Part shown: piece after piece, positions 9,001 to 58,010 of the stretch
How positions within the stretch are numbered: position 1 is the first letter of the stretch
Layout: the number at the start of each line of letters is the position of its first letter
From: Chiloscyllium plagiosum
Taxonomy: Eukaryota
Length of the DNA stretch: 59,516 nucleotides
Assembly (NCBI RefSeq): GCF_004010195.1
Contig: NC_057719.1
Span: 20,978,138-21,037,653, forward strand
Direction of reading: 5' to 3'
Position numbers and translations under genes: made by a program
Notes under the pieces: model-generated
What the model saw: only the letters and a program-made list of their open reading frames with translations
Databases searched by the model: none
What the model was told of the DNA's origin: nothing

Positions 9001-9935
9001 TGGTAAAAACAATGACTGCAGATGCTGGAAACCAGATTCTGGATTAGTGGTGCTGGAAGAGCACAGCAGTTCAGGCAGCATCCGAGGAGCAGTAAAATCG
9101 ACGTTTCGGGCAAAAGCCCTTCATCAGGAATAAANNNNNNNNNNNNNNNNNNNNNNNNNNNNNNNNNNNNNNNNNNNNNNNNNNNNNNNNNNNNNNNNNN
9201 NNNNNNNNNNNNNNNNNNNNNNNNNNNNNNNNNNNNNNNNNNNNNNNNNNNNNNNNNNNNNNNNNNNNNNNNNNNNNNNNNNNNNNNNNNNNNNNNNNNN
9301 NNNNNNNNNNNNNNNNNNNNNNNNNNNNNNNNNNNNNNNNNNNNNNNNNNNNNNNNNNNNNNNNNNNNNNNNNNNNNNNNNNNNNNNNNNNNNNNNNNNN
9401 NNNNNNNNNNNNNNNNNNNNNNNNNNNNNNNNNNNNNNNNNNNNNNNNNNNNNNNNNNNNNNNNNNNNNNNNNNNNNNNNNNNNNNNNNNGGAAGGTGCC
9501 AGGATGGGAGGGTGGGTTGTAGGGGGGGCGTGGACCTGACCAGGTAATCACGGAGGGAACGGTCTTTGCGGAAGGCGGAAAGGGGTGGGGAGGGAAATAT
9601 ATCCCTGGTGGTGGGGTCGTTTTGGAGGTGGCGGAAATGTCGGCGGATGATTTGGTTTATGTGAAGGTTGATAGGGTGGAAGGTGAGCACCAGGGGCGTT
9701 CTGTCCTTGTTACGGTTGGAGGGGTGGGGTCTGAGGGCGGAGGTGCGGGATGTGGACGAGATGCGTTGGAGGGCATCTTTAACCATTTGGGAAGGGAAAT
9801 TGCGGTCTCTAAAGAAGGAGGCCATCTGGTGTGTTCTGTGGCGGAACTGGTCCATCTGGGAGCAGATACGGCAGAGGTGGAGGAATTGGGAGTATGGAAT
9901 GGCATTTTTGCAAGAGGTAGGGTGGGAAGAGGTGA
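9001..9935 (-). mobile_element. Penelope-like element (family A): RT C-terminus/linker, N gap, pLTR with hammerhead
   Basis: ORF 9124-9855: MASFFRDRNFPS...RTPLVLTFHP...PPLSAFRKDRSLRDYLVRS. Hammerhead motif at 9098-9129. Confidence 0.9.
9098..9129 (-). ncRNA. Minimal type-I hammerhead ribozyme motif
   Basis: Minus strand reads tc-CTGATGA-a-GGGC-tttt-GCCC-GAAAC-GTC^ga, an intact catalytic core. Confidence 0.75.
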
Positions 9936-10093
9936 TAAGAAACGGTAATAGTGGCCTTAAACATGAGCTGGAAAAATCAAATTGGTAATTGTGATCTGGT
10001 TCAGAAGTACACAGAATACTTTCAAGATAGTTTCATGGAACATAACACTCTGAAACTAAGCAGACAGCAGGAAAAAATGATTTGTATTGTGTA

Positions 10094-12612
10094 ATAGAAC
10101 ATAGAATACAGACCAGTACAGCATTGTACAGGCCCATTGGCCCTCGATGTTGTGCCAACCTTTTATCCTACTTGAAGATCAAACTAACCTACATAGCCTT
10201 CATTTTACTATTATCTATGCGCCTATCCAAGAGTCACTTAAATGCGTCAAATGTATCTGACTCTGTTACACTGCTGGTAGTGCACTTCACACACCCGCCA
10301 CTCTCTGTGTAAAGAACCGACATCTGACATCTCCCCTAGACCTTCCTTCAATCACCTTAGAATGATGCCCCCTTGTGATAGCCATTTCTGCCACGGGAAA
10401 AAAAATCTCTGACTATGCCTTTCATCATCTTGTCCATCTCTGTCAAGTCACATCCTTCTTTGCGTCAGTGACAAAAGCCCTAGCTCCCTCAACCTTTCTT
10501 TATAAGACATGATCTCCAGTCCAGGCAGCATCTTGGTAAACCTCCTCTGCATCTCTAAAGCTTCCACATATTTCCTATAATGAGATGACCAGAACTGAAC
10601 AGAATATTCTAAGTGTGGTCTAACCAGGACCCGAGAGAGCTGCTGCGTAACCTTGCGGCTCTTAAACTCAATATCCCTGCTAATGAAATCCAACACACCA
10701 TACACCTTCTTAACAAGCTTATCAACTTGGGTGGCAACTTTGAGGGATCCATGGACATGGACCCCGAGATCCCTCTGTTACTCCACACTGCCAAGAATCC
10801 TGCCTTTAACCTTGTAATCTATCTTCAAATTTGACTTCCTAAAGTGAATCACATCACGCTTTTCTAGGTTGAACTCCATCTGCCACTTCTCAGCCCAGTT
10901 TTGCATTCTGTTAACGTCCTGTTGCAACCTACTACAGCCTTCCACACTACCCACAACTCCACCAACCTTCGTGTTAGCAGCAAACTTACTAACTCACCCT
11001 TAACTTCATTTATAAAACTCACAAAGAGCAAAAGTCCCAGAACAGATCACTGTGGAACACTACTGTTCCAAGCTCCAGGCTGAATACTTTCCATCTACTA
11101 TCAGCTTCTGTTTTCTATGGGCCAGCCAATTCTGTATCCAGACAGCCAAATTTCCCCATATCAGAAACCTCCTTAATTTCTGAATGAGCCTACCATGGAG
11201 AACCTTATCAAACACATTGCTAAAAGTCATGCACACCACATCCACTGTTCTGCCTTCATCGATGTGTTTTGTCACATCGTCAAAGAATTCAGGGTTGTGA
11301 GACATGACCTGCCCCTCACAAAGTCAAGCTAACTATTGCTAATCAAACTGTGGTTTTCCAAGTAATCATAAATCCCATCTCTCAAAATACTCTTCAATAA
11401 TTTGCACACCACAAATGTAAGACTGGCTGGTCTGTAATCCCCAGGATTATTGCTATTTCCTTTCTTGAACAAGGGAATAGCATTTGCCATCCTCCAATAA
11501 TCTGGAACTACTTCAGTGGAAGTGAGGATGTGAAGATCATTGTCAAATGCTCAGCAATCTCTTCCTTCACTTCCTGCAGTAAACTTGGGTATATCCCATC
11601 TGGCCCAGGGGATTTATCTATTCTTATGTTTTTCAAAATTTTCAGCACATCCTCCTTCTTAACATCAACCTGTTCGAGCATATCAGCCTGTTTCATGTTA
11701 TCCTCACAAATGACAAGACCCCTTTCAGTAGTGAATACTGAAGCAAAGTATTCATTAAGAACCTCCCCTCTCTCCTCCAACTCCAGGTGCAAGTTCCCTC
11801 CACTATCCCTGATTGGCCCTACCCCCATTCTGGCCATCTTCTTAGAACGCCTTAGGGTTTTCCTTAATCCTACACACTAAAGCTTTTTCATGTCCCTTTC
11901 AAGCCCTCCTAATCCATTCTTCAGTTCCTTCCTGGCTACCTTGTAACCCTGTAGAGCCCTGTCTGATCCTTGTCTCCTCAGCCTTATGTAATCTTCCTTC
12001 ATCCTCTTGACTAGATGTTCCACATCCCTTGTCACCCAAGGCTCTTTCAACCTACTATCCCTTCCTTGCCTCAGTGGGACAAACCTGTTCACCACAATCA
12101 GCAAGGGCTTCCTAAACAACCTGCATTTATCGTGCATTTCACTGAGGACATCTGTTCCCTATTTAGGCACCTTAGTTCCTGCCTAATAGCATTGCAATTC
12201 CCCCTATCCCAATTAAATACTTTACCATATTGTTTGCTCCTATCCCTCTCCATGACTATAATAAAAGTCATGAGTTATAATCACTATCATCCAAAATACT
12301 CTCCCATTGAGAGATCTGACACTTGGCCTAGTTCGTTGCCAAGCACCATATCCAATATGGGTCCCCTCTAGTCGGCCTATCTACATATTGAGTCAGGTAT
12401 CATTCCTTGACACACCTGACAGAAACTGCTCCATCCAAACTATTTGAACTAAGGAAGTTCCAATCAATAGGGAAGTTAAAGTCACCTATGACAACAACCC
12501 TGTTACTTCTGCATCTTTCCATAAATCTGCCTCCCAATCTGCTCCTCTGTGTCTCTATGGCTACTGGGGGTTCTGTAGAAAACTCCTAATAAAGTGATTG
12601 CTTCTTTCCTGT
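10094..12612 (-). mobile_element. CR1 LINE, degraded ORF2 (endonuclease end through RT to tail)
   Basis: ORFs 10448-10705, 11060-11305, 11508-11837 (EVLNEYFASVFT, KSPGPDGIYP) and 11877-12137; VVIGDFNFP near 12470-12500. Confidence 0.9.
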
Positions 12613-13630: not shown

Positions 13631-13930
13631 TCTCTCAACTACAGTGTGTTAGTTTTTCTGTCACACAACTGGTGAACTAAACAATGGGAAATAAGTTAAA
13701 ATTCGGAATACAGAGGAATCTTGACGATCCGAGTTCCAATTATCTGAAAATCGGATTATCCAAAGGAGATCTCGAGGTCCCGATAGATATATTACATCAA
13801 AGACGTGTTTCCAGCAGTGATCACATGTTTTGTTTACAGTGATTAAACAGGCACTGTTTTCAAATGACTGACCTCCCGTCCTCTCTCTCCCCACACTTTC
13901 CCTGGAGTTTTACATAGGGGTGTACCCTAA

Positions 13931-14589
13931 ACCTGCGCCCACACCTCCTCTCTCACCTCCATCCAAGGCCCCAAAGGAGCCTTCCACATCCATCAAAGTT
14001 TTACCTGCACATCCACCAATATCATTTATTGTATCCGTTGCTTCCGATGCGGTCTCCACGACATTGGGGAGACTGGACGCCTCCTAGCAGAGCACTTTAG
14101 GGAACAAATCTGGGACACCCGCACCAATCAACCACACCGCCCCGTGGCCCAACGTTTCAGCTCCCTCTCCCACTCTGCCGCGGACATGGAGGTCCTGGGC
14201 CTCCTTCACCGCCGCTCCCTCACCACCNNNNNNNNNNNNNNNNNNNNNNNNNNNNNNNNNNNNNNNNNNNNNNNNNNNNNNNNNNNNNNCTACCTGCCCA
14301 GCTCCTTTTCCACCTATCCACTCCACCCTCTCCTCCTTGACCTATCATCTTCATCCCCTCCCCCACTCACCCATTGTACTCTATGCTACTTTCTCCCCAC
14401 CCCTACCCTCCTCTCATTTGTCTCTCCAACCTTCAGGCACTCTGCCTGTATTCCTGATGAAGGGCTTTTGCCCGAAACGTCGATTTTCCTGCTCCTCGTG
14501 TGCTGCCTGAACTGCTGTGCTCTTCCAGCACCACTCTAATCTAAACTCTGGCTTCCAGCATCTGCAGCCATTGTTTTTACCTAGCTGAA
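13931..14589 (+). mobile_element. Penelope-like element (family A, Neptune-like): GIY-YIG endonuclease plus pLTR
   Basis: Translation from 13931: TCAHT...FTCTSTNIIYCIRCFRCGLHDIGETGRLLAEHFRE... (degenerate GIY-YIG). 10-bp TSD TGTACCCTAA at 13921-13930 and 14590-14599. Confidence 0.9.
14452..14483 (+). ncRNA. Minimal type-I hammerhead ribozyme motif
   Basis: tc-CTGATGA-a-GGGC-tttt-GCCC-GAAAC-GTC^ga; core intact. Confidence 0.75.
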
Positions 14590-14749
14590 TGTACCCTAAC
14601 CCCACCACCCTTCCCCAGATAATCTCTCCAACATTGTACTGTACACAGTAAAATGTGTGTGTAAGTGTGTTAGTTTTTCTGTCACGCAACTCGTGGACTA
14701 AACTATGGGAAATAAGTTAAAGTCCTGAATACAGTATAATGTTTATTCA

Positions 14750-20220: not shown

Positions 20221-20299
20221 CAGATTCTGGATTGGTGGTGCTGGAAGAGCACAGCAGTTCAGGCAGCATCCGAGGAGCAGTAAAATTGACATTTCGGGC
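20221..20299 (-). mobile_element. Short Penelope family A pLTR fragment inside the Gypsy 5' LTR
   Basis: Near-identical to 9033-9111; absent from the 3' LTR. Confidence 0.85.
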
Positions 20300-21363
20300 A
20301 GCCCAGGCTGACCAATATATATAGGGGATTAGATGATTTTTTAAAATATAATCGGGGATATAGAATATTTTCAGTTCAGGGGATTGATTCCAAGCTGGTT
20401 TGGTATTGCTAGTGTACTGTGCATAAGTAAATAATGGGTGACTTTGTGATGGGATACTGCCCTCTATGCAGTTATTTAAGAGTTTATAGGAGAAAGCAGT
20501 AACTCCATAAAGAACTTTCACCCACAACAGTCATCTTAGAGAGTTGTGGTAAGTATTTCTGGCATCATGCCTTTATTTGCAAAGCTTGACTCGTTTGATC
20601 CAGCTGTTGAAGACTGGGCTAGTATTGGGAAAGAATGCAATTTTCTTTTCCAGGCAAATGACATCGGAGCAGATGAAAAGCAATGGGTAATCCATCTGAC
20701 TGCTTGCAGACCTGCAATATTTTCAGTATAAGGAGCTTACTGTTCCTGGAGGCGCCAGACATTGAAATCTTCCAAGAATTAGGGTAGAATTAGTTGACAA
20801 AGATTCACTAAATTGGTTCAACATTTTTCAATTAGAAAATGGCAGCCTCAGTGAAGTCCTAGTGAAACACCCAGGAGCTTTTCAGGAAGGGCTTGGGACT
20901 ATCAAACAGGCCAAAGCCACTTGACATGTTGACCCCAGGAAGCAATTCCACAATTTTGCGAAGCCTGCGCAGTGCCAGTTACCTTACAGGTAAAAGTAGG
21001 GGCAGAAATCAGGAGGTTGGAGAGCAAAGGAATCATTGAACCAGTGCAGTTTGCAGATCGGGCAGCACTAGTCATACTGATTGTGAGGCTTGATGGCTCA
21101 GTACACCCTTGTGAGGATTTTAAGCAAGTGGTAAAGTGTTTCTTGCAGTTGGATAAATACCCAATCCCTCGTAAACAAGACCTGTATGCAAAGTTGGCCA
21201 GTGGGTGGCTGTCCTTTATGAAACCGGATATGAGCCACACCTACCTGCAATTGCAGGGTTTATACCAATGCATAAGGCTGTCATTTGGGGTATGATCAGC
21301 CTGCACTCTTTTTCAATAGACTATGGTGAACATTTTATGCCCCAGGTTGCCATTTGTCTGGAT

Positions 21364-21650
21364 TGAATTGAATTGAATGAATTTATTGTCACGTGTACTG
21401 AGGCACAGTGAAAAGCTTTGTCTTGCAAGTAATACAGGCAGATCACAAAGTTAAGTAACATAGATAAGGAAATAATAGGTAAACAGCGGCAAAAACAAAA
21501 ACACAGGTTAAGGCGAATGTTAAGAGTTTGTGAGTCAATTCAGTATTCTAACAACAGTAGGGTAGAAACAGTTTCGAAACCAGTTGGCGTGTGTGTTCAG
21601 GCTTCTGCTCCTTCTCCCCAATGGTAGAGGTTGTGGAAAAACATTGCCGG
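21364..21650 (-). mobile_element. Non-LTR retroposon 3' end (Rex1/L2-like tail) inserted in Gypsy RT
   Basis: Minus strand ends gtgacaataaattcattcaattcaattca. It interrupts Gypsy RT at ...VAICLD / GKTTEEH. Confidence 0.7.
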
Positions 21651-24460
21651 GGGAAGACCACTGAAGAGCACTCGGAGAACTTGAACATAGTGCTTAAACA
21701 TTTCTCCCAGGCCAATGTACACCTTAGACAGGAAAAATGTGTGTTCCAGGCACCCATAATGACATACTTGGATTAGAGAGTCAACAAAACAGAATTATAC
21801 CCATTGAAAGATAGTGCGAGTGTGATCAAGGGAGTCCCGATTCCCATGTCTGTATCGGAGGTTAGGTCCTTCCTTGAGTTAAGGAATTATTGCGGAAAAT
21901 TCATACATAAATTGGCCTCCATCTTAGCATCCTTACACCTGCTATTGAAAAATGGTCAACCTCAGAAATGGTAGCGTAGCCAAGAAGTAGCCTTTAAGGA
22001 AGTCTAAAAGCAGCTATCGTCATCTAAGGTGTTGGCCCACTACGATCTGAAGCGAGAGGTGGTGCCGATATGCAATGCCTCATTGTAGAGTATCAGGGTA
22101 GTGCTGGTGGCCCAACAGAGAGGAACACCCAATAGCACATGCTTCCTGGACTTTGCCTGATGTCGAACGCAAATATGCCCAGATAGAGAGGGGAGGTTTG
22201 ATAGTCATCATTGGTGTGAGGAAGTTCCACCAGTACCTTAATGGATGGGAATTTGTCACAGTGACAGATCACAAACTTCTGCTAGGGCTACTGAAGGAAG
22301 ACAAAGCAGTGTCTCCCATAGCTTCTGGTAGAATTCAGCAGTGGGCCCTTATTCTCTGTGCATACAAGTTAGAACACTATCCAGGAAGCCAAGTGGTTAA
22401 TGCAGATGCCTTCAACCATGTCCTACTGGCAGATACACAACTGGCAGTGCCTCCCCTGGAAGACTCTGTTCTGCTTTTAAACTTCCTGGACACCCTTCCG
22501 GTCACCGCTGACAGTATCTGACTGTGGACACAAAAAATTCTGTCCTAGCAAAACTAAAACAGCGTGTGGTAACAGGGAGACAGAAGAGCCATTGCAGCCA
22601 GGATTGAAACCTTTCTGGACCCGGTAAGACCAGATCACCATAGAGGATGACATATTGCTATGGGGAGCAAGAGTGATTGTCCCAAGTAAAGGTCGCTGCC
22701 AGATACTGGTTAAAGTCCACCAGGGGCATCCAGAGGTTTCCAAGACAAAGATGCCAGCAAGACCCTATGTCTAGTGGTCAGCTTTGGATACCCAAATAGC
22801 TGCATTGGTGGGGCTGTGCCCAGAGTACTAACAAGGATAAAAATTGCCATGGGAATGGCTGGATAAACCCTGGATTCGGTTAAGTGTCAACAGTGCCAGT
22901 CTTTTCATATGCTCAATATTCCCGGTCATTGTGGGTGCCCATTCAAAGTGGTTGAATGTGCATACCGTTTGTTCAGCAAACTCAGGGGTGACAGTTGAGA
23001 AGCTGTAATCATCCTTCACAATACACAGACTCCCAGATGTATTGGACACAGAAAATGGGACACCATTTACCAACAGGGAATTTGAATATTTCCTGAAATC
23101 AAATGGTGTTTGACATGTAAGGACAGCTCCATACCATCCATTGTTCAATGGTCTAGCAGAAAGAGCATCCAAACATTGAAGGCAGGCTTGAAAAAGCAAC
23201 CTACAGCATCACTTGATACCAAACTGTCGCACTTCTTGTTTAATAATAGGACCACCCCTCACAGAAAAACAGAGTTGCTGATGGGGTGAAGATGCCGCAC
23301 CAGGTGTGGGGAGAGGTAGCGAATGGCAGCAGGAACACCAATGCCGGCCACCTGCCTCCTCTAAGTGAGAGAGACAATTTAATTTAGCGGACAAATTTTG
23401 GTGCCGAAACCATAGAAATCGCCCTGTATGGGGTTGATGCAAGGCTGAGTCCTGTAACTTACAAAGTTCAGGTAGACAATACAGTCCTGAACGAACATTT
23501 GGACCACCTGAAAGCTGTTGCCTTGCAGATGGGACAGGGACAAAATACACCTGACCTCTCTGAATAACAAGAAGGCCTGACAGAAACTGTAGATTCTCCC
23601 TGTCCATCCAGTGTTGAGGAAACTTTGGAGACCAAGATGGAGGCAGGTTCGATACCATTACTGCTGGAAGAAGAGGATGAAACTCTCCCAAGACACTTTG
23701 GATGCAAGGTCCTGCATATGTCGCCTGTGTCAGAGTCTGAATCAGACGGACTGGACTTGGGCCAAAAACGTTGCAGAGAAAGCTACAAGAGAAAGACCAG
23801 ACTGGCATCCCCGGATCCAGGGTAGGGAGGGATATACTGACTGGAACCAGATAGATTTCATTGGCTATGAGATCTTTGATTGGGGTTGTTAACCTGGATC
23901 AATCAGGGAGCCCTGGCTGACCAATACGAACAAGGGATTTAGAATCTCCTCAGTTCAGGGGACCGACTTTAGGCTGGTTGGCCACAGACAGTGTACTGTG
24001 CACAAGTAAATGAAGGGTGACTTGGTGATGGGATACTGGCTCCCTGTGCAGCTACTTCACTATCTCTTCTGTAGATTTGAATCGACTGCTTCATTTCAGT
24101 TCTGGTTTAATGTGCTCCGAGGCCTGTCCCTTTGACTACTCAGATAACTAGATCGTAGACTGTCTTAGCTCTGAATAATCAATATGGGTTTTTAACTGAA
24201 CACTCTGTCAGGGAATTCCACAAACAAAACTTTCACTGAAGCAACTGAAAAATCTTTAGGTTTGTGGAAGAAATCATATTTGCATCTATCTACTTTCAGT
24301 CACGCTGCATGGTTTATCAAGCTAAAAATCAATCCTTGATTATTCTAACCCCATAAGGAACCAAATATCTTTTATGTTTTCCCTCTCCCATCATACAATA
24401 TAACTATGATATAAATAAACATCTTTTAACACTCCAGGTGGCATTTACTTGTTTCAAATT

Positions 24461-24819: not shown

Positions 24820-25095
24820 GATAAGTAGACCTTGTTTCGATATTTCATCTGAAAGACAGTATTTTCAACACTGCTGCTCTCTCTCTAGAGTGCAATGGAA
24901 TGCCAGTGTCGAAAAGTGTGGCTCTGGAAAAGCACAGCAGGTAAGGCAGCATCTGAGGAGCAGGAGATTCGATATTTCAGGCATAAGCCCTTCATCAGGA
25001 ATGTCAGGTGTAGATTGTTGTATTGAAGCCCCACAAAGGGACTTGGGCCCAGAACTTTGCAACTCAGTTGCAAGAGTGCGACTGACTGTGCCATG
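24820..25095 (-). mobile_element. Old Deu-domain SINE (SacSINE1/AmnSINE-like) with a nested short Penelope insert
   Basis: Minus strand: tRNA-like head, then ctgacattccattgcactctagagagagagcagcagtgttgaaaatactgtctttcagatgaaat, resembling the recalled Deu core. Confidence 0.55.
24910..25002 (-). mobile_element. About 90-bp Penelope pLTR insert carrying a hammerhead motif (24967-25002)
   Basis: Minus strand ATTC-CTGATGA-a-GGGC-ttat-GCCT-GAAAT-ATC^GAAT. Imperfect TSD ggaatgccagtgt / ggaatgtcaggtgt. Confidence 0.75.
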
Positions 25096-33412: not shown

Positions 33413-33546
33413 AGTTCTGAAGAAGAGTCATACCAGACTCAAAATGTTAACTCTGTTCTCTCTTCGCAGATTTTACTAGGCCTGTTAAGTTTCTTCAGCA
33501 TTCCCTGTGTTTGTTTCAGGTTTCCAGAATCTGCAGTTCCCTTTTA
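33413..33546 (+). mobile_element. Penelope-like family B pLTR fragment with decayed hammerhead
   Basis: agtt-CTGAAGA-a-GAGTC-atacca-GACTC-AAAATGTT-aact; the G of GAAA is mutated. Confidence 0.7.
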
Positions 33547-38395: not shown

Positions 38396-38524
38396 TGCTC
38401 CTTTGGATATCCCAAAATAGAATGGCATTCCTAGTGCTTGCGTCATCTTCAAAGGCGATATGCTCCCTGAGAAGGAATTCCAGCCCAGAGCTGACCTTCT
38501 CAATCCCTGATACTTGTCCTGGAC

Positions 38525-39281: not shown

Positions 39282-40462
39282 GGAATAGAGTGGCGCTGGA
39301 AAAGCACAGCAGTTAAGGCAGCATCAGGCAGGAAAATCGACGTTTTGGGCAAAAGCCCTTCATCAGGAATACAGGCAGAGTGCCAGAAGAGTGGAGAGAT
39401 AAATGAGAGGAGGGTGGGGGTGGGGAGAAAGTAGCATAGGGTACAAGAGGTATGTGNNNNNNNNNNNNNNNNNNNNNNNNNNNNNNNNNNNNNNNNNNNN
39501 NNNNNNNNNNNNNNNNNNNNNNNNNNNNNNNNNNNNNNNNNNNNNNNNNNNNNNNNNNNNNNNNNNNNNNNNNNNNNNNNNNNNNNNNNNNNNNNNNNNN
39601 NNNNNNNNNNNNNNNNNNNNNNNNNNNNNNNNNNNNNNNNNNNNNNNNNNNNNNNNNNNNNNNNNNNNNNNNNNNNNNNNNNNNNNNNNNNNNNNNNNNN
39701 NNNNNNNNNNNNNNNNNNNNNNNNNNNNNNNNNNNNNNNNNNNNNNNNNNNNNNNNNNNNNNNNNNNNNNNNNNNNNNNNNNNNNNNNNNNNNNNNNNNN
39801 NNNNNNNNNNNNNNNNNNNNNNNNNNNNNNNNNNNNNNNNNNNNNNNNNNNNNNNNNNNNNNNNNNNNNNNNNNNNNNNNNNNNNNNNNNNNNNNNNNNN
39901 NNNNNNNNNNNNNNNNNNNNNNNNNNNNNNNNNNNNNNNNNNNNNNNNNNNNATGTCGGCGGATGGTTTGGTTTATGCGAAGGTTGGTAGGGTGGAAGGT
40001 GAGCACCAGGGGTGTTCTGTCCTTGTTGCGGTTGGAGGGGTTGGGTCTGAGGGCGGAGGTGCGGGATGTGGATGAGATGCGTTGGAGGGCATCTTTAACC
40101 ACGTGGGAGGGGAAATTGCGGTCTCTAAAGAAGGAGGCCATGGTGTTCTATGGTGGAACTGCTCCTCCTGGGAGCAGATACGGCGGAGGCGGAGGAATTG
40201 GGAATACGGGATGGCATTTTTGCAAGAGATAGGGTGGGAAGAGGTGTAATCCAGGTAGCTGTGGGAGTCAGTGGGTTTGTAAAAAATGTCAGTGTCAAGT
40301 CGGTCGTCATTAATGGAGATGGATAGGTCCAGGAAGGGGAGGGAGTTGTCAGAGATGGTCCAGGTAAATTTAAGGTCAGGGTGGAATGTGTTGGTGAAGT
40401 TGATGAATTGCTCAACCTCCTCGTGGGAGCATAAAGTGGCACCAATGCAGTCATCGCTGTCG
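39282..40462 (-). mobile_element. Penelope-like element (family A): RT, N gap, pLTR
   Basis: DDCIGA...HPDLKFT...LPFLDL...YKPTDSHSYLDYTSSHP..CKNAIPYSQFLRLRRICS. The hammerhead at about 39337-39369 has GAAA changed to AAAA. Confidence 0.92.
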
Positions 40463-40658
40463 CGGCCTGGTATTTCTGGCTGAGTGTCATGGTGTATAAA
40501 GACAAGACAAGGATATTGTGAGTGTTCAAGTAAGTTCAATCAACCTGGAGATGCAGCTTGATCAAGCCTGTGAGCTGGGTTTGTGTTCCAAAGCATTAAG
40601 CATCAGCATCATAATGATAATTGCTGGCACTTCCTGAGGTCCAGCATTGAAATGCAGA

Positions 40659-40910
40659 ATAAAAACTGAGAGAATTGTGGATGCTGAAATCAGAAACAAA
40701 AACAGAAGTTGCTGGAAAGATTCAGCAGGTCTGGCAGTATCTGTGAAGAGAAATCAGAATTAATGTTGCGGGTTCCGGTGACCCTGGCTCAGAACTTGTT
40801 TCTCAGTTCTGAGGAAGGATCACCAGGATCCGAAACATTAACTCTGATTTCACTTTTCAGGTGCTGCCAGACCTGCTGAGCATTGCCAGCAACTTCTGTT
40901 GTTGTTTTTG
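40659..40910. mobile_element. Palindromic Penelope family B insertion with opposed hammerheads
   Basis: 13-bp TSD ATTGAAATGCAGA at 40646-40658 and 40911-40923. Inverted halves meet at about 40800. Plus-strand motif AGTT-CTGAGGA-a-GGATC-accag-GATCC-GAAAC-ATT-AACT at 40805-40843. Confidence 0.85.
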
Positions 40911-42045
40911 ATTGAAATGCAGAGGCTCACTGTCAGTGAAAGGGAGATGTACATTGAGTGTTCACAGAGGTTGGCACATGTCAGATGCCAATGGTCGCAG
41001 ACATGAGGTGCATGTGGCCAGTGCTCGGGGAGCACATGCTGTGATGTCAGTGCAGTAGTTCCCACATAAAGGTCGATCGAAGCAAGTGGGGGTTGAATCT
41101 GCCAGGTGCTCATGCTGGATTCCTTCTCAGGTTTCCCTAATATCTCGTCTGACTGGGAAGGTGAGAGACTGAATAGTGTCATTAACAAGCGATAATCAAA
41201 GTCAATTACCAACCTGCTGCTGCCTACACAGAATCTCATTATGCATCTTGTGAACAGCGTTAAGATGGATCGAGATGATCTTGATGCCAAGATGGGCTTC
41301 ACTGTAGTTGTTGCCTGACTCTGCAATACACCTCACCATAGATCCCTGTCAGATTCCATCCCAATAGCTTTATAAGTGATTTAGATTTTATGAATAAAGG
41401 GCACCATTCCCACCTTGCTTTGTCTTTTTGCACCATGATAACGGAAAATATCAAACATAATTAGCTTGCCGATGGATCTTGTGGAAAAAAACATCAGACC
41501 AGATTTTGTGCGGACTAATGATCCAGTTCCTGTGCTGTCATATTCTATGGTTTTTATTTTCCAGCTCATTTAAAGTGCCAGCTCATCTCAATCACATACA
41601 GACATGTTGTCAAACATAGTCTTGCTCATCATTTCTTTCTGTCTTTGAGTTAGAAGTAAATATTGTTTCATATACATCTCAATTTTTACTTTGGAGTATT
41701 CTCCACATCATTTAATTCATTAATTTCCACAATCCACCTCCCATAGGTCATTTACACCATATTTAGTCGATTTAACAAGTTCTGATCTATTCTGTAAGCA
41801 TCGTGCATGGCTACAGGACTAAGGAACATTTACAGAACAAGAAATTACCATTCTAGCTATGTTCTTCACCAGTCCTTCTTTGTTAGAACCATTTACAATA
41901 CGTTTAATATTTCTATATTTTTCTGCATGGACTTATATTTTACACAACATTAAATACTAAACAAGTTACCCATAAAGCATGCAAGGGACTCTCTCAAATA
42001 ATCCCAGTGTAAAAGCGTCCCATGCTTCAACAACAGTATATGAAG

Positions 42046-42137
42046 TCTAGATTAGAGTGGTGCTGGAAAATCACAGCAGCTCAGGCAGCATCCGAGGAGC
42101 AGAAAAATCGATGTATCAGGCAAAAGTCTTTCATCAG
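42046..42137 (-). mobile_element. 92-bp Penelope family A pLTR insert
   Basis: Perfect 15-bp TSD CAACAGTATATGAAG at 42031-42045 and 42138-42152. The insert starts exactly at CTGATGA on the minus strand. Confidence 0.9.
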
Positions 42138-43309
42138 CAACAGTATATGAAGGACATCTCTTTCTTTGTCTCCTTGTTGGTGGTGTTCTCAAATTGATGA
42201 CCCCTCACCAACTGTCTCTGCCCCTACAAAGAATAATATTTCCCAAGAAATACCATAGTTTTAAAACACTGGATTAAATTTTTTTCTTAGTGATCACTGG
42301 TCAGTGAAAATAATTATTGCACCTTAAACATCTTCTTGTTTTTTCACCTCTGACTAACTGAATTCACCTTTTAGGTTTTCAATGAGTATTATGTTCTTTC
42401 TAAAATGACGTATGGAAAATTGCACACAATACATTAATTTTGTGCTCCATGTTCCTGCTAGTTGGCATTCAAAGAAATGCCAAGTAGAACAAGTGACAAT
42501 GGCGAAGACCTTGCATCTTATCAAGAGTTAGTCAGTCGTTTCCTACTGTTATAACTCTGGTGCTTCTCTTTCGGCAATCTCGGCCAGACCTTGAATGATG
42601 ATTTTTCATTCTGTTCAGACTAATAAATAAATACTGAAATAAGCTTTCTGCAATCCTTTTATAGTAATGATGATAGCTTTTGCAGAACAGTGAGGAATTC
42701 AACCCCAATAGACCCCATAAATCAGATACAACCTTCTATTTGTTCCAAAGGACAAATGGATGTTATTGTGCTGTCCTCCTCTAAACAAAGCAAGATTCCT
42801 GGTTTTTCTGCTTTGTACACTTATTTGTTATGTCAATTGTAATTTTCTTTCAGACATATAGTATGAATACACCCAAGATAGGTCTCTAAGATGGATATGT
42901 TAAAAATGTAATGGATTTGAGGAGTCTGAACAATGTGGTTTATGGTACGAAATGTGACTGGATCATGCAGGAAACTCTGAGGCCAATCAGTGTGAATTAT
43001 GACTTGTTAACAGTCTTGTTAACTGCGGGTTTTACCTCATTAAATATACACCATTCTATCATACTGCTCAGTTGTGAGCAGACTGGATGTCCAGAATTTT
43101 CGATACGGAGTTCAAAGTAGGTACTTGGTGATGTTCACTTGCTGTTTGGTCAGAAGGACCTCAAAGTTAGATACCAGCCACCAACATTTCAGGGAACACC
43201 CCATTAATGGGTGAATGCAGTATCAGAGACAGAATGAATGCGAAGTATCCGAAATGAGATGGTAGCACTTATTCTGTCAAAGTGGAGAAGGACATTGATC
43301 TTCTTCCTA

Positions 43310-44640: not shown

Positions 44641-44810
44641 TGATGTGCTTTCCTGCAGACGGCTGAGACTGCTTCAATCCCCGAGTGATAATCTTGGCTC
44701 AGATTGGCATGGTCTGGTAGAGGCCTCTCTACTAGTCCTGAGGGAAGAGGAGTTCCCACTGGTGTACCACCCCATCCAGCAGATCCAACTGGGCTCTGCC
44801 CTCATAATGG
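44641..44810 (-). pseudogene. Second Myb/SANT-like (Harbinger) relic
   Basis: Minus strand LDLLDGVVHQWELLFPQD**RGLYQTMPI*AKI...AVSAVCRKAHQ, homologous to 38525-38750. Confidence 0.5.
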
Positions 44811-47069
44811 CAGACCGATTTCTCCCTGTCAGCCACGACCAGGGTGAATGTCAGGGACCGTACAGGGCAGACTCAGACCGTAAAAGTACTGGTCTGGGTC
44901 TGCCAACAAATTCTGGGATAGCTGTTGAGTGGTGAGTTGTTCTGAGAATGGCAGGTAGTAAGATGGGTGGAAATCCAATGGGAGAGATGGCATTGGACAG
45001 GGTGGGTTATTAATGAGGCACGTTTGGTAAGATACGGAGTGAAAGTCCACCATGCCTCGCGGTAAGAAACTATCCAAAAAAACTCAACACAATTCAGACT
45101 TAAAACATTCAGCCCTGGGATACTGCTTCAAGAACTGTTTGTATTGGTGTATTTCACCTTCTGTAGGAAGATTTGTGAGGAGGGATTTAAATTCTATCAC
45201 TAGCTGTTTTGATGATGAGCTAAATTAAGACCATAAGCTGTACAAGTAGGCCAGTCAGCCCATTGGGTCTGCTCTGCCTTTCAATGAGATCATTGCTGAT
45301 TTGATAGTTCTTCTTGTCTTTCCCTCCTAATCCTTGATTCCCTTATGGAATAAAAATCTCTCAAATTCATTTCCACTTCAGGGTTTCTCAATTTACACCT
45401 GGTGATGACTAGGAAACAAATTGAACTACTCGGGGCGGGGTGGGGTGGGGGTGGGGGGTTGCAACTATAGTCACTGTTATAACAAACAGAATGGACAGAT
45501 AGGCCAGTGCTTCTCACCTATTCCCAAGTTCTCTCCATAAGAACAACTCACCAGTCAAAGGCAGTAAAGGCCTGATTGAGCTATCACCATCATAACTGTG
45601 TAGGAGGAAGATGGAGAAAAGAGGTCAGTCTGCTTTTATTTGATGTGAAAAGGCACGATGGAAAGGTTACCTTTTTCAGAGGGGAAGAGGGGTGGTGTTG
45701 CACAATGCACAGTGTGGGCTACCCTTCCAAGTTGTTACCTTACTGTTATGGCCCTCTAACATCTGACACCCCCATGCCTCTCATCCTCACATCCAACCTT
45801 ACCAGTCTCGCTAATCTCTCCTACCCAAAATCCTGATCTAACCTGAGAACAGGATCTAAGATGGTTCTTCCCAGGAAGTAGTCAATGCTTATTTCTGGTG
45901 CTGCTAAAATTCAGTTGCCAGATAATTGGCGTGGCTTGCAGCTCTCAAGTTTTCCAGTCACTGACAGGCAGGAGCCCCAATCTCACCAAGTTAAGGCCAT
46001 CTCAAACATATATTACTGATTTTTCTAAGTGGGAGAACATTGCAACACATCACCATTTTAAAGTTCATTATTTTTCATGCGTGCTTGAATTCTTTCTGTG
46101 ATGAACTTAAATTCATTTCTCCTACTAAATACAGGCTTGTCAACAATTATAACTGATCTATCAATATATAACTCATCATAATTCTTCATAACCTTGCAAA
46201 GTTCTATCCATTCACCCTGGACTTGAGTGAAAGAAGATCCAAATTTGCAAATCTTTGTTTAGAACTTCTTCCTCTTTCACTTCCCAATGCATTTCTGTTG
46301 AATTTAGATGCTATCTTTAGTGCATTGCTCAAAGCTGACTGTAGTTGACCAATGACCTTTCAGAATTAACACCTTGCTTTTCATTGCATGGTTACGGGCA
46401 AATAATGAAGTATCCATTTGCATTACAGTTTTGAACTGTGTCTTCAGATCTTCAGTAGTTCTGTTCATCATGTAAAAATGATGAAAAAGTAGATGATCCT
46501 GATCATGATAATACTAATATATTTCCCTATTGATTTGCGCAGAAATATATGACATATCTTGGAGTCATTTCAACCTTATTTGTTTCTCTCACCACATGTA
46601 TAAGATGGGTTGAAGGGCTAACATTGTTGATGATATTTGACAGCTACATGGCCTTGAATGAGTCCTGTGAACATTCCCGTATGCATCGCAGATGGCACAA
46701 TCAAAACTTGGCCTCTGTAGTAGCAGGCAGATAATTTTCCGTATCTGCATTTCTGCGCTGTCTGCTGTAACACTGTATAAGAGATAGAGAGAGTTTTGTT
46801 CTGAGAGTTGGACTTTTCGGACCGGGATCACAAATGGCGCCAGGAACGAACCTAAGCCTCCAGACCAGTGATCAATCGAGGGGTCCCCGAAGGCAGAAAT
46901 GTGTGAGACTTGTTTTTTTCTCCTTTCTTTTCCATTTATCACTCTTATTATTATCATTATTATTACCTAATAAACATCAACATTTTAAGCAAATTCCTGT
47001 TGTCGAATCTTCTCTGAACTACATTTAACCGAATCCAAAAGAACTGTTTGGATAAACACTGTGATCCAA

Positions 47070-48691: not shown

Positions 48692-48778
48692 GGTTTTGAG
48701 GAAGGGTCGCTGGACCCGAAAAATTAACTCTGATTTCTCTTCACAGATGCTGCACTTTTCCAGCAATTTCTGATTTTG
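48692..48778 (+). mobile_element. Penelope family B pLTR fragment, decayed hammerhead
   Basis: TTGAGGA-a-GGGTC-gctg-GACCC-GAAAAATT-aact. Confidence 0.7.
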
Positions 48779-51117
48779 TGGGCTGAAATTTTATTCTTTG
48801 GTTTGGATGTGCATATTTGTCAACTCTGTAAATATCAATTAATCTACATAAATATTGGTTCCAGTTCGATCCTTCTGGCTTTCTGGAACAGGACAATGAA
48901 AAATCAAAATTTCCATCTCCATGTGGCAAGATAAAGGATTTTCCCAAGAATCAGTTGTACAGTGGACAGAAGTTTTAAATTTCACTTACCATTTTAAATC
49001 TGATCAATGTTCCTGCAAAAAAACAATTTGTTTTAAATTTAATCCTGATCACAACCCTGGAGTTGCTACCCACATGTCAGAATTCATAATAGTAAAAATG
49101 CTGAATGACTTACAATTAAAACAGAGAATTTTACCACCTCATTAATTTGCAATTTGTAGTAGACCAATCTGTACCAATTGCACATAGATGTTTTGACCTT
49201 ATTTCTATCATAACTTCATTTTGTAACTAAAAGAAAATAAATTACATAATAATGACATTGCTAACATTTTGACTGTAAAATATACATGTCGTGAGGGGAA
49301 ACAGTTAATTTTGTATTCTGGTGTAAGTCAAAGCTTTAGTGTTAACAAGCATCTAGTAGAATCATCAAGAGGATCTTAGGGATTAATATGACATCAGAAA
49401 GGAACAGATACTAGGTATTTGATCATGAACTTCTTTTCCTCGCGCATAATCGCACCAAGAAGAATAAAGACCCAATCAAAATTCTAGGAAAGGCAGATGG
49501 AGAGATTATCTGATAATAAAACATAGAAATGTTTAACCCCAGGTTCAAAGTATATGTTGAAATAAAATAAAACCTTCAACAGTTTTTTTTATTTTTCTGA
49601 TCCCTTGCTATTTGACATTGTAAACGATTCCAGCTCAATAATTGCTGCTCCCTTTTAAAACCACTGTCATTACCCATCTCCTGAAGAAATAACATCCATG
49701 TGTTCTCAGACTTTACAAACTCCTGCACCTATCACAAACCTGTCCTCCTCCTCAAGTAATTGCATGTATCATCACCTCCCAATTCTGAACTATCTTTCCA
49801 GTAAGTCTATACAGATCTCCAGTCCAGTCTCAGTGCTGAATTTGTCCAGTTCAATCATGAATTAGATTCTCTGTGCCTGTGACCATGATAAATGTGCTCA
49901 CCTCATTCTCCGATTTCAGACAGTGTTTTTGTGATGACCAGGCTCCATATGCATCCTGACCTGACAACCCCCAGCCCATCCATCTGACACCCGTATAACA
50001 TGAACGCCGAACAATCTGACCCCATCCAATTCAACAACTCTCCTCCCGCCTCCACTGACACCCTTTCCATGCTCCCCTTACTCTTGAGCCTCCCAAAACC
50101 CATGCAACATTGCCCCGAAACCAACCCCTACCAACAGCCTCCAAATATTCCCTAATTGTGCTTGGCCAATGCCACCATCAGCCCATGCCACCTTACTCCC
50201 TTACCCACTCAGTAGCCTAACCATTCATCTACATGACATGCTAGCCCCTTACCCACCCACCTGCCACCCTAACCCTTCCCTCACATACAACCCAACCTTC
50301 CTACCCACCTGACATCCAGAGCATCACAAACCCACTTGGCACCTTACTCCTTTACCCAACCAGTTTCCAAGGTATCTTTTCACTACTTGCCACCAACCTC
50401 CTCAGCCATTATATTATCTTCTCTCCGTGCTTTATCAAAGCGCATTCAACACCTCTAATGACAAAAAACAGCAGCTAGTGTTGAAAAACGTGAGCCAATG
50501 ATGATCCCTGCACTTTACTGGAAGACCCCCAGAATGGGTAAGCCCCACATTTCTCAAGTTGCCCAGTTGGGAAGGCTGGCGAAGAAATGCTGAACCTTGG
50601 GCAAGGCAAGAGAGAAAGAGTGGAGTGCCAATGGACGATGAATGCCATTGTTTAGGAGACTCGACTCTGTACATTATAACTGATAAGGCACATATTGTGT
50701 TTAAATCTGAGAGCACACTGGGATGCTCCTTATACAATAATGATTCAGGTTAGGAACATCTGTTTGTTTAACTCTCAAATAAAGGAATCAAGGAACAATC
50801 CACCTTTATGAATTTGAAACACCGTGCAGAGGCACAATTGTTATGGTGTGAATGGATTTAACTCCTGAACTCTTAAGACGTTTGAAATGAAATTCTGAAA
50901 TTAGATTTAGATTACTGGCATTAACATACAAAGCTGATATCAAAAAGTAGATTATCACAAATTAACAGCAGATTGTGGCTTGGTATTGGGGATTTATGAG
51001 TACCAGATTTGGATTTATCTGGCAAAATAGACCTTTTCTAGTTTTTGTAGCCCAAATATTTGCACATTTTCAACAATATTCCAATTTTGGCAGAGTATTT
51101 TTCTATTGATGTACTTT

Positions 51118-53192: not shown

Positions 53193-53750
53193 GTTTGTGC
53201 GAAGATTTGTAGCTCGGGTGCTCGTTGCTGTGGTTCTGTTCGCCGAGCTGGAAGTTTTTGTTGCAAACGTTTCATCCCCTGGCTAGGCGACATCATCAGT
53301 GCTTGGGAGCCTCCTGCGTAGCGCTTCTTTGATGTTTCCTCCGGTGTTTATAGTGTAAACTATAAACTACACTATAAACACCGGAGGAAACATCAAAGAA
53401 GCACTTCGCAGGAGGCTCCCAAGCACTGATGATGTAGCCTAGCCAGGGNNACTGGGACAACATTACTATCATAGGGCAAGCCAGACAGAGAACAGCCAGA
53501 GAATTCCTAGAGGCATGGCATTCATCCACAAACTCCATCAACAAACACATCGACCTGGACCCAATATACCAACCACTACAGCGGACAACTGAAACTGACA
53601 ACCGGAAGCGGCAGGGACAGACCACTATAAACACTGGAGGAAACATCAAAGAAGCGCTTCGCAGGAGGCTCCCAAGCACTGATGATGTCGCCTAGCCGGG
53701 GACGAAACGTTTGCAACAAAAACTTCCAGCTCGGCGAACAGAACCACAAC
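53193..53750. mobile_element. Penelope-like family C insertion: inverted pLTR, partial pLTR, GIY-YIG C-terminus, pLTR
   Basis: 12-bp TSD AAATATGCCAAC at 53181-53192 and 53751-53762. Plus-strand WDNITIIGQARQRTAREFLEAWHSSTNSINKHIDLDPIY. Hammerheads at 53263-53302 (-), 53423-53448 (+, runs into NN) and 53676-53714 (+). Confidence 0.9.
53676..53714 (+). ncRNA. Minimal type-I hammerhead ribozyme motif (family C)
   Basis: GCA-CTGATGA-t-GTC-gcctagccggg-GAC-GAAAC-GTT^TGC, with stems I and II paired. Confidence 0.78.
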
Positions 53751-54139
53751 AAATATGCCAACTCCTGAATATGATACCATTGTGTAACATGTTGCAGATG
53801 GTGCATCAGACTGCCTATAATGTACACTACTCTGATAGGCCATTATACTTTCAACATAATTTCCTGACTATTGTATATTTGAATATTAGTCAAATGTTAA
53901 CCATCAACAATGGATGAGGCAACGCTCTTTTCTGAGCATGCATATCTTTATACAGTAATGTTTAGTTTGCAAGGAAATGTTCTTTTTTGAACACATTTGA
54001 GACTGCAGCTAAGGATAATTATATAAATCAGTCAACCCAAAAACCTTGTGCAATTAGCACATGACCTGTCTAATGAGATTTACACCAGCTTTTAACTGTT
54101 TACAATTGGTTTTCCCGTTATACAAAACATAGCCCCAAA

Positions 54140-55900: not shown

Positions 55901-55989
55901 AGCTACCACAGCCAACCTGTCTTTCACACTTTCATAGCTTTCTTTCTTCAGATTTGACAACAGTAGCATACCAAAACTTCAAGAGAGTT

Positions 55990-58010
55990 AGGGGGCAGAG
56001 TGAGTGTAGTGGTTATCATTAAGGAGAAGGTGCTGGGGAAACTGAAAGATATGAAGGTAGATAAATCACCCAAATAAACTACATCCCAGACTTCTGAAGG
56101 AGATAACTGAGGAGATTGCAGAGGTACTGGTGGTGACATTTCAGGATTCATTGAAGTTGGGGAGAGTCCCAGAGGGCTGGAAAATAACCAGTATAACACC
56201 CCTGTTTAAGAAGGGACAGAGAGAGAAGATGGGAATTTACAGGCCCATTAGCTTGACTTTGGTCATTGGTAAAATTTCAGACTCCATTATTAAGAACGAG
56301 ATTGCAGAGCACTTGGAAGAGCATGGTAAAATAGGACTGAATCAGTATGGCTTTGTAAAGGGGAGGCTATGCATGAGAAATTTGTTAGAATTCTAAATAA
56401 AAACTGAAAGAACCGCGGATGCTGGAAATCAGAAAAAACCCCAGAAATTACTGGAAAATCTCAGCAGGACTGGCTGCATCTGTGAAGATTAATCATAGTG
56501 AACAGGTCGTGGTCTGGTAATCCTTCCTCAGGCAGTGTTCTGAGGAAAGGGCACTGAACCCTGAAATAATAACTCTGATTTCTTTGAGCTTTTTCAGCAA
56601 TTTATGTTTTTATTAGGATTCTTCTTGTGGCAGTAATGAGCAAGTTAGACAAATCATAGAATCCATACAGTGTGGAAGCATGCCATTCAGTCCAGTGAAT
56701 CCGCAATGACCCTCCAAAGAGCATCCCACCCAGAACTACCCTATACCTGCATTTCCAATGGCTAATCCACCAAACCTGCACATCCCTGGACACTACGGGC
56801 AATTTACCATGGCCAGTCCATCTAACCTGCATACCTTTGGATTGTGGGAGGAAACCCGAGCACCTGGAGGAAATCCACGTAGACACAAGGAGAATGTGCA
56901 AACTCCACACAGACAGTCTCCTGAGGGTGGAATCAAACCTGGATCCCTGGTGCTAACCACAGAGCCAACATGCCATCTGATGGCAGCCAGGATTTCCTGA
57001 AGACTTTAGCCACACAGGAGGCTGCTAAATAAAATGAGGCCATGTTGTTGAGGGTAAGATACTGGCATGGATAGGAGTTGGCCAACTGGCAGAAGGCAGA
57101 GAGTATAGATAAAGAGGTCATTTTCAAGATGGCAATTGGTAGTAGTAGTGTTTCACGGGAGTCAGTATAGGGACCACAACTATTCAGGTTATCTATCAAG
57201 GATCTGGATAAAGGAACTGTGGGCATCGTTGCTAAGCTTGCAGATGATGCAAAGATATTTGGAGGAACAGGTCGTGTTGAGGAAGCATGGAGCCTGCAGA
57301 AGGATTTGGACAGGCTAGGAGAGTGGGCAAAATGTGGCAGGTAGAATACAATATGTGAAACTATGAGTCATGCATTTTGGTAGGAAGAATAGAGGAACAG
57401 ACTGTTTTCGAAATGGAGAAAGGTTTCAGAAATCTGAATCACAAAGGGACTTGGGAGCCCTAGTTCAGGATTCTCATAAGGTTAGCATGAAGGTTCAATT
57501 CACAGTTATGAAGGCAAATGCAATGTTAGCATTCATTTTGAGAGCACTACAATATAATAACAGGGATGTACTGCTGAGGTTCTGATAAGGCTCTGTTCCT
57601 GGGGATGAAGCGCTTGTCATGTTGAACAGCTCTGGGTCTGTACTCGATGGAGTTTAGAAGGATGTTGGGGAGTCTGATAAATTTTACAGAATACTTTGAG
57701 GCCTGGTTAGAGTGAATGTGGAGAAGGTGTTCCCACTTGTGGAACAGACTTGGACCCAAGGGCACAGCCTCTGAGTAAACAGACAACCCTTCAGAACTGA
57801 GATGAAGAGCAATTTCATGAATCAAACTCATTGTTGTAGAAGGCTGTGGAGGACAAATCATTGGGTGTATTTAAGACACAGATAGATAGGTTCTTTATTA
57901 GTCAGGGGATCAAGGGTTACGAGCAGAAGGCAGGAAAATTGGGTTGAGAAACATGGTGGAGCAGTTTAAGTGGGTCAAAAGGCCTAATTCTGCTCCATAT
58001 GTTATGATCT
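55990..58010 (+). mobile_element. CR1 ORF2 with nested Penelope palindrome (56395-56612) and HE1-like SINE (56652-56975, -)
   Basis: VPEGWKITSITPLFKKG...YRPISLT; MHFGRKNRG...QRDLGALV. Confidence 0.85.
56395..56612. mobile_element. Palindromic Penelope family B insertion
   Basis: TSD TTAGAATTCT / TTAGGATTCT (56385-56394, 56613-56622). Halves meet at ...ttcctcag-gcagtgtt-ctgaggaa; stem II AGGG/CCCT. Confidence 0.78.

Follow-up and report, generated by a model that had tools for sequence, protein, structure and literature searches.

Minimal type-I hammerhead ribozymes (min-HHRs) have been described in metazoan Penelope-like elements (PLEs), among them the fish elements Xena, Poseidon and Neptune (Cervera and De la Pena 2014, PMC4209133), where the monomer was reported as inactive and the dimer as weak; in the fly Penelope element, the end of an intron was placed at helix I (PMC4209133). 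The motif of PAc, the Poseidon element of Anolis carolinensis, depends on protein and is not required for insertion in vitro (Frangieh et al. 2024, PMC11167929), while its cleavage obeys the C3/G8 rules (PMC11167929). A CX2-5CxxC linker separates the Neptune clade from the Penelope/Poseidon clades (Craig et al. 2021, PMC8557442). Non-LTR retrozymes also carry type-I hammerheads from PLE pseudo-LTRs (pLTRs); they occur in the one chondrichthyan sampled and are reported to be depleted from Xenopus introns, in an analysis that tested location and not strand (bioRxiv 10.64898/2026.07.22.740005). Literature searches, whose coverage excluded most subscription papers, found no published shark account or strand test, and one supplement file of PMC4209133 contained no cartilaginous-fish terms. 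The cellular role of PLE hammerheads is still treated as open in this literature (PMC8557442, PMC11167929).

The window analysed here, a stretch of 59,516 nt from Chiloscyllium plagiosum, holds a series of motifs that are very probably minimal type-I hammerheads lodged in Penelope-like pLTRs, the truncated genomic copies being likely inert passengers. The kind of motif is already described (PMC4209133), and the window itself is ordinary. Family profiles, partly built from window copies, gave 19 matches (A, seven; B, nine; C, three), 15 of which cover both core halves, in keeping with the claim of an earlier note that about a dozen motifs are present. A search for the exact pattern CTGANGA-N10-22-GAAACGTH returned four matches (9127-, 14454+, 53299- and 53679+), against none in each of 100 shuffles. 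An Rfam scan of the window yielded no hammerhead family among seven matches up to E=5, as is expected because the motifs lack helix III. The features are as follows.

4117..4363, plus strand: family-B remnant (4117-4172) and family-A remnant (4266-4363), truncated, without the CUGANGA half
6681..6843, no single strand: head-to-head pair of old family-B pLTRs, outside the range of the earlier note
9002..9132, minus strand: family-A (Neptune-type) pLTR, hammerhead fully intact; core 9127-9100, predicted cut after C17 at 9100
9135-9490: assembly gap upstream of the preceding pLTR
9491..10032, minus strand: ORF fragment, thumb/linker region, of the family-A element of 9002..9132
13931..14589, plus strand: 5'-truncated family-A copy, with GIY-YIG endonuclease fragment (13931-14227), gap, and pLTR with fully intact hammerhead
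20235..20300, minus strand: truncated family-A pLTR without the CUGANGA half
24915..25002, minus strand: family-A pLTR, 11 core bases intact, G10.1-U11.1, AUAU for ACGU
33414..33542, plus strand: family-B pLTR of the A-U subfamily at stem II pair 2, G12 to A, AUGU; predicted dead
39283..39446, minus strand: family-A pLTR, core 39366-39339, G12 to A; predicted dead
39953..40539, minus strand: RT C-terminal/thumb fragment of the family-A element owning pLTR 39283-39446, across a gap
40688..40913, no single strand: head-to-head family-B pLTR pair, both decayed, cores 40809+ and about 40792-
42044..42140, minus strand: decayed family-A pLTR
48693..48779, plus strand: decayed family-B pLTR, C3 to U, AAAU
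53225..53357, minus strand: inverted family-C (Poseidon-type) pLTR, core 53299-53266 intact with ACGU, G10.1-U11.1; missed by the earlier note
53368..53448, plus strand: partial family-C pLTR, 5' half of the hammerhead, ending at a 2-N gap
53453..53695, plus strand: C-terminal end of the family-C GIY-YIG endonuclease frame, crossing the hammerhead, with a TAG stop in stem/loop II
53623..53752, plus strand: family-C pLTR, hammerhead fully intact; core 53679-53711, ATG at 53685 opening stem II
56418..56586, no single strand: head-to-head pair of decayed family-B pLTRs (56532- and 56537+)

The copy at 13931..14589, whose core spans 14454-14481 with a predicted cut after 14481, is flanked by a 10-bp direct repeat (13921-13930 and 14590-14599) that is likely a target-site duplication. 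The fragment at 9491..10032 has an atlas score of 0.97 to HTH_animal clusters, a recognition under threshold that serves as a lead only, and the equivalent region sits between RT and GIY-YIG in locus L215; the fragment at 39953..40539 includes a 95% match to 9637-9825.

Most window copies are mutated or decayed. All nine sites listed earlier (9098, 24967 and 39337 on the minus strand) are present, but the retention of core and ACGT that had been ascribed to them stands at 9098, 14452 and 53676 and fails at the other six, the core GAAAC-GT(C/T) and the palindrome occurring together in those three of nine. Three listed motifs are fully intact (9127-, 14454+, 53679+), and the catalytic core is broken in four. 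G12 is changed to A at 39337 and at 33413, the latter also with AUGU; 48692 combines C3 to U with AAAU; 24967 has G10.1-U11.1, with AUAU replacing ACGU; 40805 has ACAU at the palindrome position; and 56537 has AUAA without G10.1-C11.1. The ACGU palindrome is found at four of the nine (9098, 14452, 39337 and 53676), and also at 53299.

The attribution of the motifs to Penelope elements is supported by the frames that adjoin them: in families A and C, RT is followed by a C-terminal GIY-YIG endonuclease (EN) with CCHH and then by the motif-bearing pLTR, and in L215 (family A) a single frame runs from the RT YIDD to GIY-YIG, as judged from motifs by eye. Pfam gave no match on the Penelope-like ORF fragments of the window. 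The division into three families needs qualification, since A and B have common sequence downstream of the motif, whereas C is unrelated. A CX4CxxC linker of the CHRRNCKTC type precedes EN in family A (L214, L215, L227), which points to a Neptune-type element; a CX2-5CxxC linker is absent before EN in family C (L032, L124, L138, L150, L222), which points to the Poseidon type (Penelope/Poseidon clade), both assignments being made by linker and CCHH features. Family B, for which no linked ORF was found in the window, appears to be an older relative of A, judging only by the sequence that the two have in common.

CCHH in A and C, and an inverted copy adjoining the pLTR, are as in the inverted, 5'-truncated insertions of the Neptune and Penelope/Poseidon clades (PMC8557442); unlike the elements of that account, none of eight candidate loci of the assembly sampled here holds a gap-free full-length copy, all eight containing assembly gaps. 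Like retrozymes, the motifs are type-I hammerheads derived from PLE pLTRs, but retrozymes are defined by tandem arrays (bioRxiv 10.64898/2026.07.22.740005), and the window has none. A retrozyme array was rejected: six short tandem repeats are present, none with the motif.

The claim that these are minimal type-I hammerheads with a palindrome in place of helix III is supported. C3, U4, G5, A6, N7, G8 and A9, with G12, A13, A14, A15.1-U16.1 and H17, are the majority state in A, B and C, and four window copies have the exact catalytic core. An unpaired base between 9 and 10.1 is followed by G10.1-C11.1, helix III is missing, and the palindromic 15.2-16.2 (ACGU) is present, its self-duplex reaching only -1.7 kcal/mol. 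These features, with the CUGANGA/GAAA core, are those of the min-HHR (PMC4209133), as are the placement in pLTRs, mostly as single dispersed copies, the opposite-strand pairs and the compensatory changes between families (PMC4209133). Pair 10.1-11.1 is G-C in 168 copies and G-U in 49 in family A, 58 and 29 in B, and 23 and 9 in C; the G-U form arises at CpG. Helix II has 4-5 bp in A and B, against 7-8 in Schistosoma (PMC4209133). Helix I, by eye, has 4 bp in B and 3 bp in C; in A it has only 2 bp plus a mismatch, unlike the 4-5 bp expected for a min-HHR (PMC4209133).

Purifying selection probably acts on the few transposing master elements. A tandem pLTR-ORF-pLTR transcript would bring together two hammerheads sharing a 4-bp ACGU helix III, and the dimer could cut slowly after GUC/GUU, probably with the element's own protein, by analogy with anole Poseidon. 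As a monomer, the motif is predicted to fold into an inactive hairpin in which the core base-pairs with the cut site. Minimum-energy dimer folds, from models that ignore tertiary contacts, failed to recover the active dimer except for the ACGU duplex in one case, and carry no weight here. Family C resembles PAc in its ATG at the start of stem II, in a predicted cut that lies 27 nt into the frame of the ATG at 53685 (26 nt in PAc), in its AC-rich copy end, and in that no RNA end pile-up was seen (PMC11167929); it differs in a longer stem/loop II with an internal mismatch (PMC11167929). That the family-C endonuclease frame stops in stem/loop II while an ATG opens stem II, as in PAc, could also mean that something other than cleavage preserves the motif, such as protein binding or start-codon context in the element RNA. 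Most copies do include the whole uncut motif, and core mutants leave PAc insertion in vitro unaffected (PMC11167929). Such a role nevertheless seems unlikely: all 11 core bases, together with G10.1-C11.1 and the palindrome, predominate in both A and C despite unrelated flanks, a pattern expected from selection for catalysis, and the C3/G8 rules govern PAc cleavage (PMC11167929).

Stem II covariation is real between subfamilies, as had been proposed, but several of the pairs quoted for it are decay or chance. Measured among intronic copies, with counts of copies and not of independent events, pair 2 of family B is G-C in 39, A-U in 29, G-U in 25 and A.C in 3 (Fisher p=8.5e-7), in support of GAGTC/GACTC. 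Pair 3 of the same family does not covary (G-C 65, G-U 15, A.C 12, A-U 4; Fisher p=0.51); GGATC/GATCC was rejected on this ground, and it was not seen by eye among the 100 genomic family-B copies listed. GGGC/GCCT was likewise discarded as CpG decay, and AGGG/CCCT is best read, by eye, as a register shift within a dead copy. Pair 2 of family A has A-U in 8 copies, against G-U in 8 and A.C in 6, of about 222, while pair 3 of family C has C-G in 17, U-G in 14, U-A in 5, U.U in 1 and C.A in 0.

That such motifs are extremely abundant genome-wide proved correct: the exact core has 168,250 matches, balanced between strands, against 1,502 for a control, or about one per 21 kb (47 per Mb; 4 in about 58 kb of the window). 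Coelacanth and Xenopus have about 4,000 and 9,000, counts obtained with a stricter descriptor and not directly comparable (PMC4209133). After insertion, 21-26% of CpG core positions are lost; among about 226 family-A intronic copies, the losses are 47/225 for G12, 51/226 for C15.2, 58/224 for G16.2 and 56/226 for C11.1. Non-CpG core G is changed in 23/452 against 84/1752 in the tail, and all non-CpG core positions change less than the tail (61/2033 against 268/6153, p=0.006), a difference tentatively put down to base composition and to tail differences among the masters.

The earlier note further suggested that the motifs could cut host pre-mRNA if the locus is intronic. The window yielded no host exon: a Pfam search of 286 out of 314 non-repeat frames of at least 45 aa gave only an RT remnant and three sub-cut-off matches, a screen that would miss shorter exons. 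RNA reads were examined over 27300-47000 only, where run X5, read to about 2%, shows coverage almost exclusively in repeat bins and lacks GT-AG joints among the rows listed, X6 has zero reads, and X7 is only guessed to be RNA. Poly(A) reads cross the family-A cut site without an end pile-up, in a library not built to show one.

An intron sample of 1.74 Mb from five genes, in which many subsets were tested after the fact, shows a sense/antisense bias, with 28 intact copies in sense and 46 in antisense (38% sense, p=0.047); intact family-A copies stand at 22:40 (p=0.03) and the plain pattern at 35:59 (p=0.017). Cleavage of host pre-mRNA at a low rate by intact sense copies, through neighbour dimers or PLE protein, with selection removing part of them from introns, would produce such a bias. 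The same lean recurs in 40 later loci (4:9); young intact family-A copies stand at 15:31 against 56:56 for young non-intact ones; family A in its main orientation (65:99, p=0.01) differs from the unskewed CR1 control (166:153; Fisher p=0.012); and same-strand neighbour pairs, both intact and within 4 kb, number 2 in sense and 8 in antisense. The excess is, however, modest and not specific to intact or unmasked motifs. Decayed copies lean antisense too (50:69), the contrast with intact ones being non-significant (Fisher p=0.19 per match, p=0.37 per insertion); copies predicted to be free (17:25) show no stronger depletion than masked ones (11:20); and the 56:56 control contains inverted truncated partners that mirror the main copy (29:18). 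Sense copies are without extra core decay, sense and antisense decaying alike (core 28/864 and 33/1169; CpG 95/382 and 117/519). Because the lean is shared by decayed and hairpin-masked copies, cleavage is not implicated; the excess in this five-gene pilot is weak and cannot be pinned on it, and low-rate cutting is an improbable account.

The lean common to decayed and masked copies would also fit a family-A antisense excess that is real and has another cause, namely pyrimidine-rich, acceptor-like sequence by the motif or an insertion strand preference. By eye, AG-terminated pyrimidine tracts are seen immediately upstream of the motif in family A and immediately downstream of it in family B, recalling the intron end at helix I in fly Penelope (PMC4209133); many copies, however, start a few bases before the core without the upstream tract, and the skew may be chance, so that this cause is put forward only tentatively.

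A lone copy in a host transcript is predicted to form a closed hairpin, with CUGAUG paired to the cut site, and in about four in ten intact copies (31/73) the motif is predicted to be masked by a long duplex with that copy's own inverted counterpart, so that host pre-mRNA would be cut at most rarely. That even very long genes have many intact copies on the transcribed strand, at a density of about 16 per Mb (28 sense copies in 1.74 Mb), makes it likely that such copies are inert; with a skew that is not specific to intact or unmasked motifs, host cutting is not supported. It would be a long shot to propose that some 170,000 intact cores place tens of latent ribozymes in each megabase-scale pre-mRNA, neighbouring or protein-assisted copies cutting nascent transcripts enough for a sense deficit, with the head-to-head habit as an antisense lock that makes the load tolerable. 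A genome with 168,250 intact cores is in any case material for analyses of strand, masking and RNA ends. Within the window, the motif at 53679 has a predicted pairing of 0.97 with its own inverted copy, the pLTR at 53623..53752 being predicted to pair fully with 53225-53357 in read-through RNA.

All nine sites at which the earlier note had placed minimal type-I hammerheads (9098, 14452, 24967, 33413, 39337, 40805, 48692, 53676 and 56537) are present in the window, and the motifs are a real feature, a new example of an already described kind. The exact pattern CTGANGA-N10-22-GAAACGTH occurs four times, versus none in 100 dinucleotide shuffles, while profiles trained on relaxed matches from the window and from other genomic loci detect 19 motifs (7 of the Neptune-type family A, 9 of its relative B and 3 of the Poseidon-type family C), with both core halves covered in 15; an Rfam scan of the window gave no match to hammerhead motifs. 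Throughout the genome (3.556 Gb) the exact pattern is found 84,096 times in the forward and 84,154 times in the reverse direction, or 47 per Mb, versus 742 and 760 for a reversed-pattern control. Both the identification as hammerheads of Penelope-like elements (PLEs) and the inferred genome-wide abundance hold. At 4 in ~58 kb the window does not stand out from the rest of the genome; a family-B pattern has 1,653 genomic matches versus 0 for its control. With a stricter descriptor than ours, ~4,000 motifs were reported in coelacanth and 9,000 in Xenopus (PMC4209133), in work that also defines the minimal motif, records it in fish Xena, Poseidon and Neptune, and describes opposite-strand motif pairs and covarying families.

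The notion that the core is retained proved too strong. Full intactness (11 core bases, H17, the CG palindrome and G10.1-C11.1) is seen only at 9127-, 14454+ and 53679+, the sole departure at 53299- being G10.1-U11.1; G12A is present at 39337 and 33413, C3U at 48692, and the palindrome is lost at all family-B sites among the nine. The case for covariation of stem II, likewise overstated, stands at one family-B pair and fails at another. Among intronic copies, which are related, so that pair counts do not equal independent events, pair 2 is G-C in 39, A-U in 29, G-U in 25 and A.C in 3 (p=8.5e-7), a real compensatory change at the subfamily level that is exemplified at 33413. Pair 3 (G-C 65, G-U 15, A.C 12, A-U 4) gives p=0.51; GGATC/GATCC at 40805 is thus expected from two independent transitions, and was rejected as covariation. 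Pair 3 of family C is C-G in 17, U-G in 14, U-A in 5 and U.U in 1. In the same intronic sample, each of the four CpG positions of the core and closing pair has been lost from 21-26% of ~226 family-A copies, and the changed fraction of non-CpG G is 5.1% for the core versus 4.8% for the tail. When all non-CpG positions are taken together, the core changes less than the tail (3.0% versus 4.4%, p=0.006), which may stem from base composition and from differences among masters in their tails. In the simplest reading, transposing masters would be under constraint, and inserted copies would then decay neutrally.

Upstream of family-A copies, frames encode the end of a reverse transcriptase (RT), a CX4CxxC linker and a GIY-YIG domain with CCHH, and upstream of family C lies a GIY-YIG domain without the linker (motifs identified by eye). 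The linker criterion that separates Neptune from Penelope/Poseidon clades (PMC8557442), applied to these encoded motifs, classes A as Neptune-type and C as Penelope/Poseidon-type. A Pfam search left the PLE ORF fragments of the window unmatched, and an atlas comparison pointed to HTH_animal clusters (score 0.97, low recognition), a lead only. Families A and B have downstream sequence in common, B is the older, and no ORF was linked to it within the window. One family-A copy is delimited:

13931-14589, + strand, family-A copy with a 10-bp direct repeat on either side

In family C, the endonuclease frame terminates within stem/loop II and an ATG lies at the opening of stem II, 27 nt upstream of the cut site, as in the anole element PAc (PMC11167929). 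The family-C hammerhead is preceded, at a distance of ~50 bases, by a TATAAA (53340-53400, 53622-53632), which has the inverted copy joined right beside it and may mark the promoter of the pseudo-LTR (pLTR) or an RNA start. Tracts of pyrimidines that end in AG, just upstream of a family-A motif (14410-14436) and just downstream of a family-B motif (40840-40862), look like splice acceptors of a pLTR intron.

The monomers 14440-14500 and 53665-53725 are predicted to fold into hairpins that pair the core with the cut site (z-scores -0.99 and 0.24), and the predicted ACGU duplex amounts to -1.7 kcal/mol. In modelled read-through RNA the 14454 motif is free (0.03) and the intact 53679 motif is 0.97 paired with its own inverted copy, so that an isolated 53665-53725 unit would be out of context for a cleavage test. 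Monomers have been described as inactive and dimers as weak (PMC4209133; dimer work of Lunse et al. is reviewed in PMC6765202), and the Poseidon motif as cleaving only with protein, being dispensable for insertion in vitro and leaving no RNA ends (PMC11167929). In poly(A) single-cell data, family members contribute 219 reads at 39346, of which 185 carry the intact G12, and 61 joined and 57 loose-ended reads extend to 39328, past the cut between 39339 and 39338, which shows that uncut family-A RNA exists. No read ends pile up at that cut, in a library that shows cut ends poorly; the only pile-up, at 40296, is inside an ORF. There, ten RNA molecules of sequencing run X5 start at one point within the family-A RT frame, and may reflect internal priming or a single copy expressed at another locus.

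The proposal that such motifs cut host pre-mRNA if the locus is intronic is unsupported. A search covering 286 of the 314 non-repeat frames of the window revealed no host domain above the cut-off, though short exons could escape, and RNA reads on 27300-47000, a shallow sample, cover little besides repeats and include no GT-AG joint in the rows listed. The window also holds CR1-type LINE remnants (26100-27242, with an RVT_1 match, and 984-1890), broken LTR-retrotransposon pol fragments (20933-22521, RT RNase H match) and a near-perfect hairpin with ~30-bp arms (7958-8030). This hairpin matches a microRNA model only weakly (E=0.0009) and falls far short of the family cut-off; it is probably a small inverted-repeat element.

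Strand bias was assessed in 1,737,803 non-N bases, sampled from five large genes as 180 stretches of 10 kb, each lying between laminin-G exons on the same strand; domain pattern and size suggest that the genes are neurexin-like and CNTNAP-like. G000:C45:6235964-6560559 was excluded, as laminin-G exons of one apparent neurexin-type gene lie there on both strands, which suggests local assembly mis-orientation. The 579 profile matches comprise 270 sense and 309 antisense copies (p=0.11): 28:46 when intact (p=0.047), 146:165 when decayed and 96:98 when truncated, the skew of intact versus decayed copies giving Fisher p=0.19. Family-A insertions with one clear main orientation number 65 sense and 99 antisense (p=0.01), divided into 15:30 intact and 50:69 decayed (p=0.37); CR1, the orientation control, gives 166:153. 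Head-to-head pairs make up 94 of 245 family-A insertions, most of them joined no more than ~20 bases from the 5' edge of the motif. When each intact copy is folded with up to 700 upstream bases, pairing to the upstream stretch is predicted for 32 of 74, or for 31 of 73 if A and C are taken by themselves. The sense-to-antisense count is 17:25 for free copies and 11:20 for those of A and C that are masked, so the skew is no stronger where cleavage is possible; nor is core decay in sense copies raised above that in antisense copies. The family-A antisense excess is weak, emerged from one of the many subsets compared in five genes, and shows no link to a working core. An intronic cut does not always block splicing.

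A 2026 preprint (bioRxiv 10.64898/2026.07.22.740005) reports retrozymes in one chondrichthyan and their depletion from Xenopus introns; among the papers listed by a literature search, none describes a strand test or shark PLE hammerheads. A fourth, A-related family (D, stem II GGGT/ACCC), seen at sampled loci L033, L054, L086, L122 and others, has 17 matches in the intronic sample, 0 fully intact, and 0 in the window. At another sampled locus, L215, a CR1-type RT start and a family-A Penelope RT-EN end share one open frame, likely because one element inserted into the other and by chance stayed in frame. Intact sense copies persist in the sampled introns at ~16 per Mb, 10 of these predicted free, and this persistence suggests a low per-copy chance of harmful cleavage.
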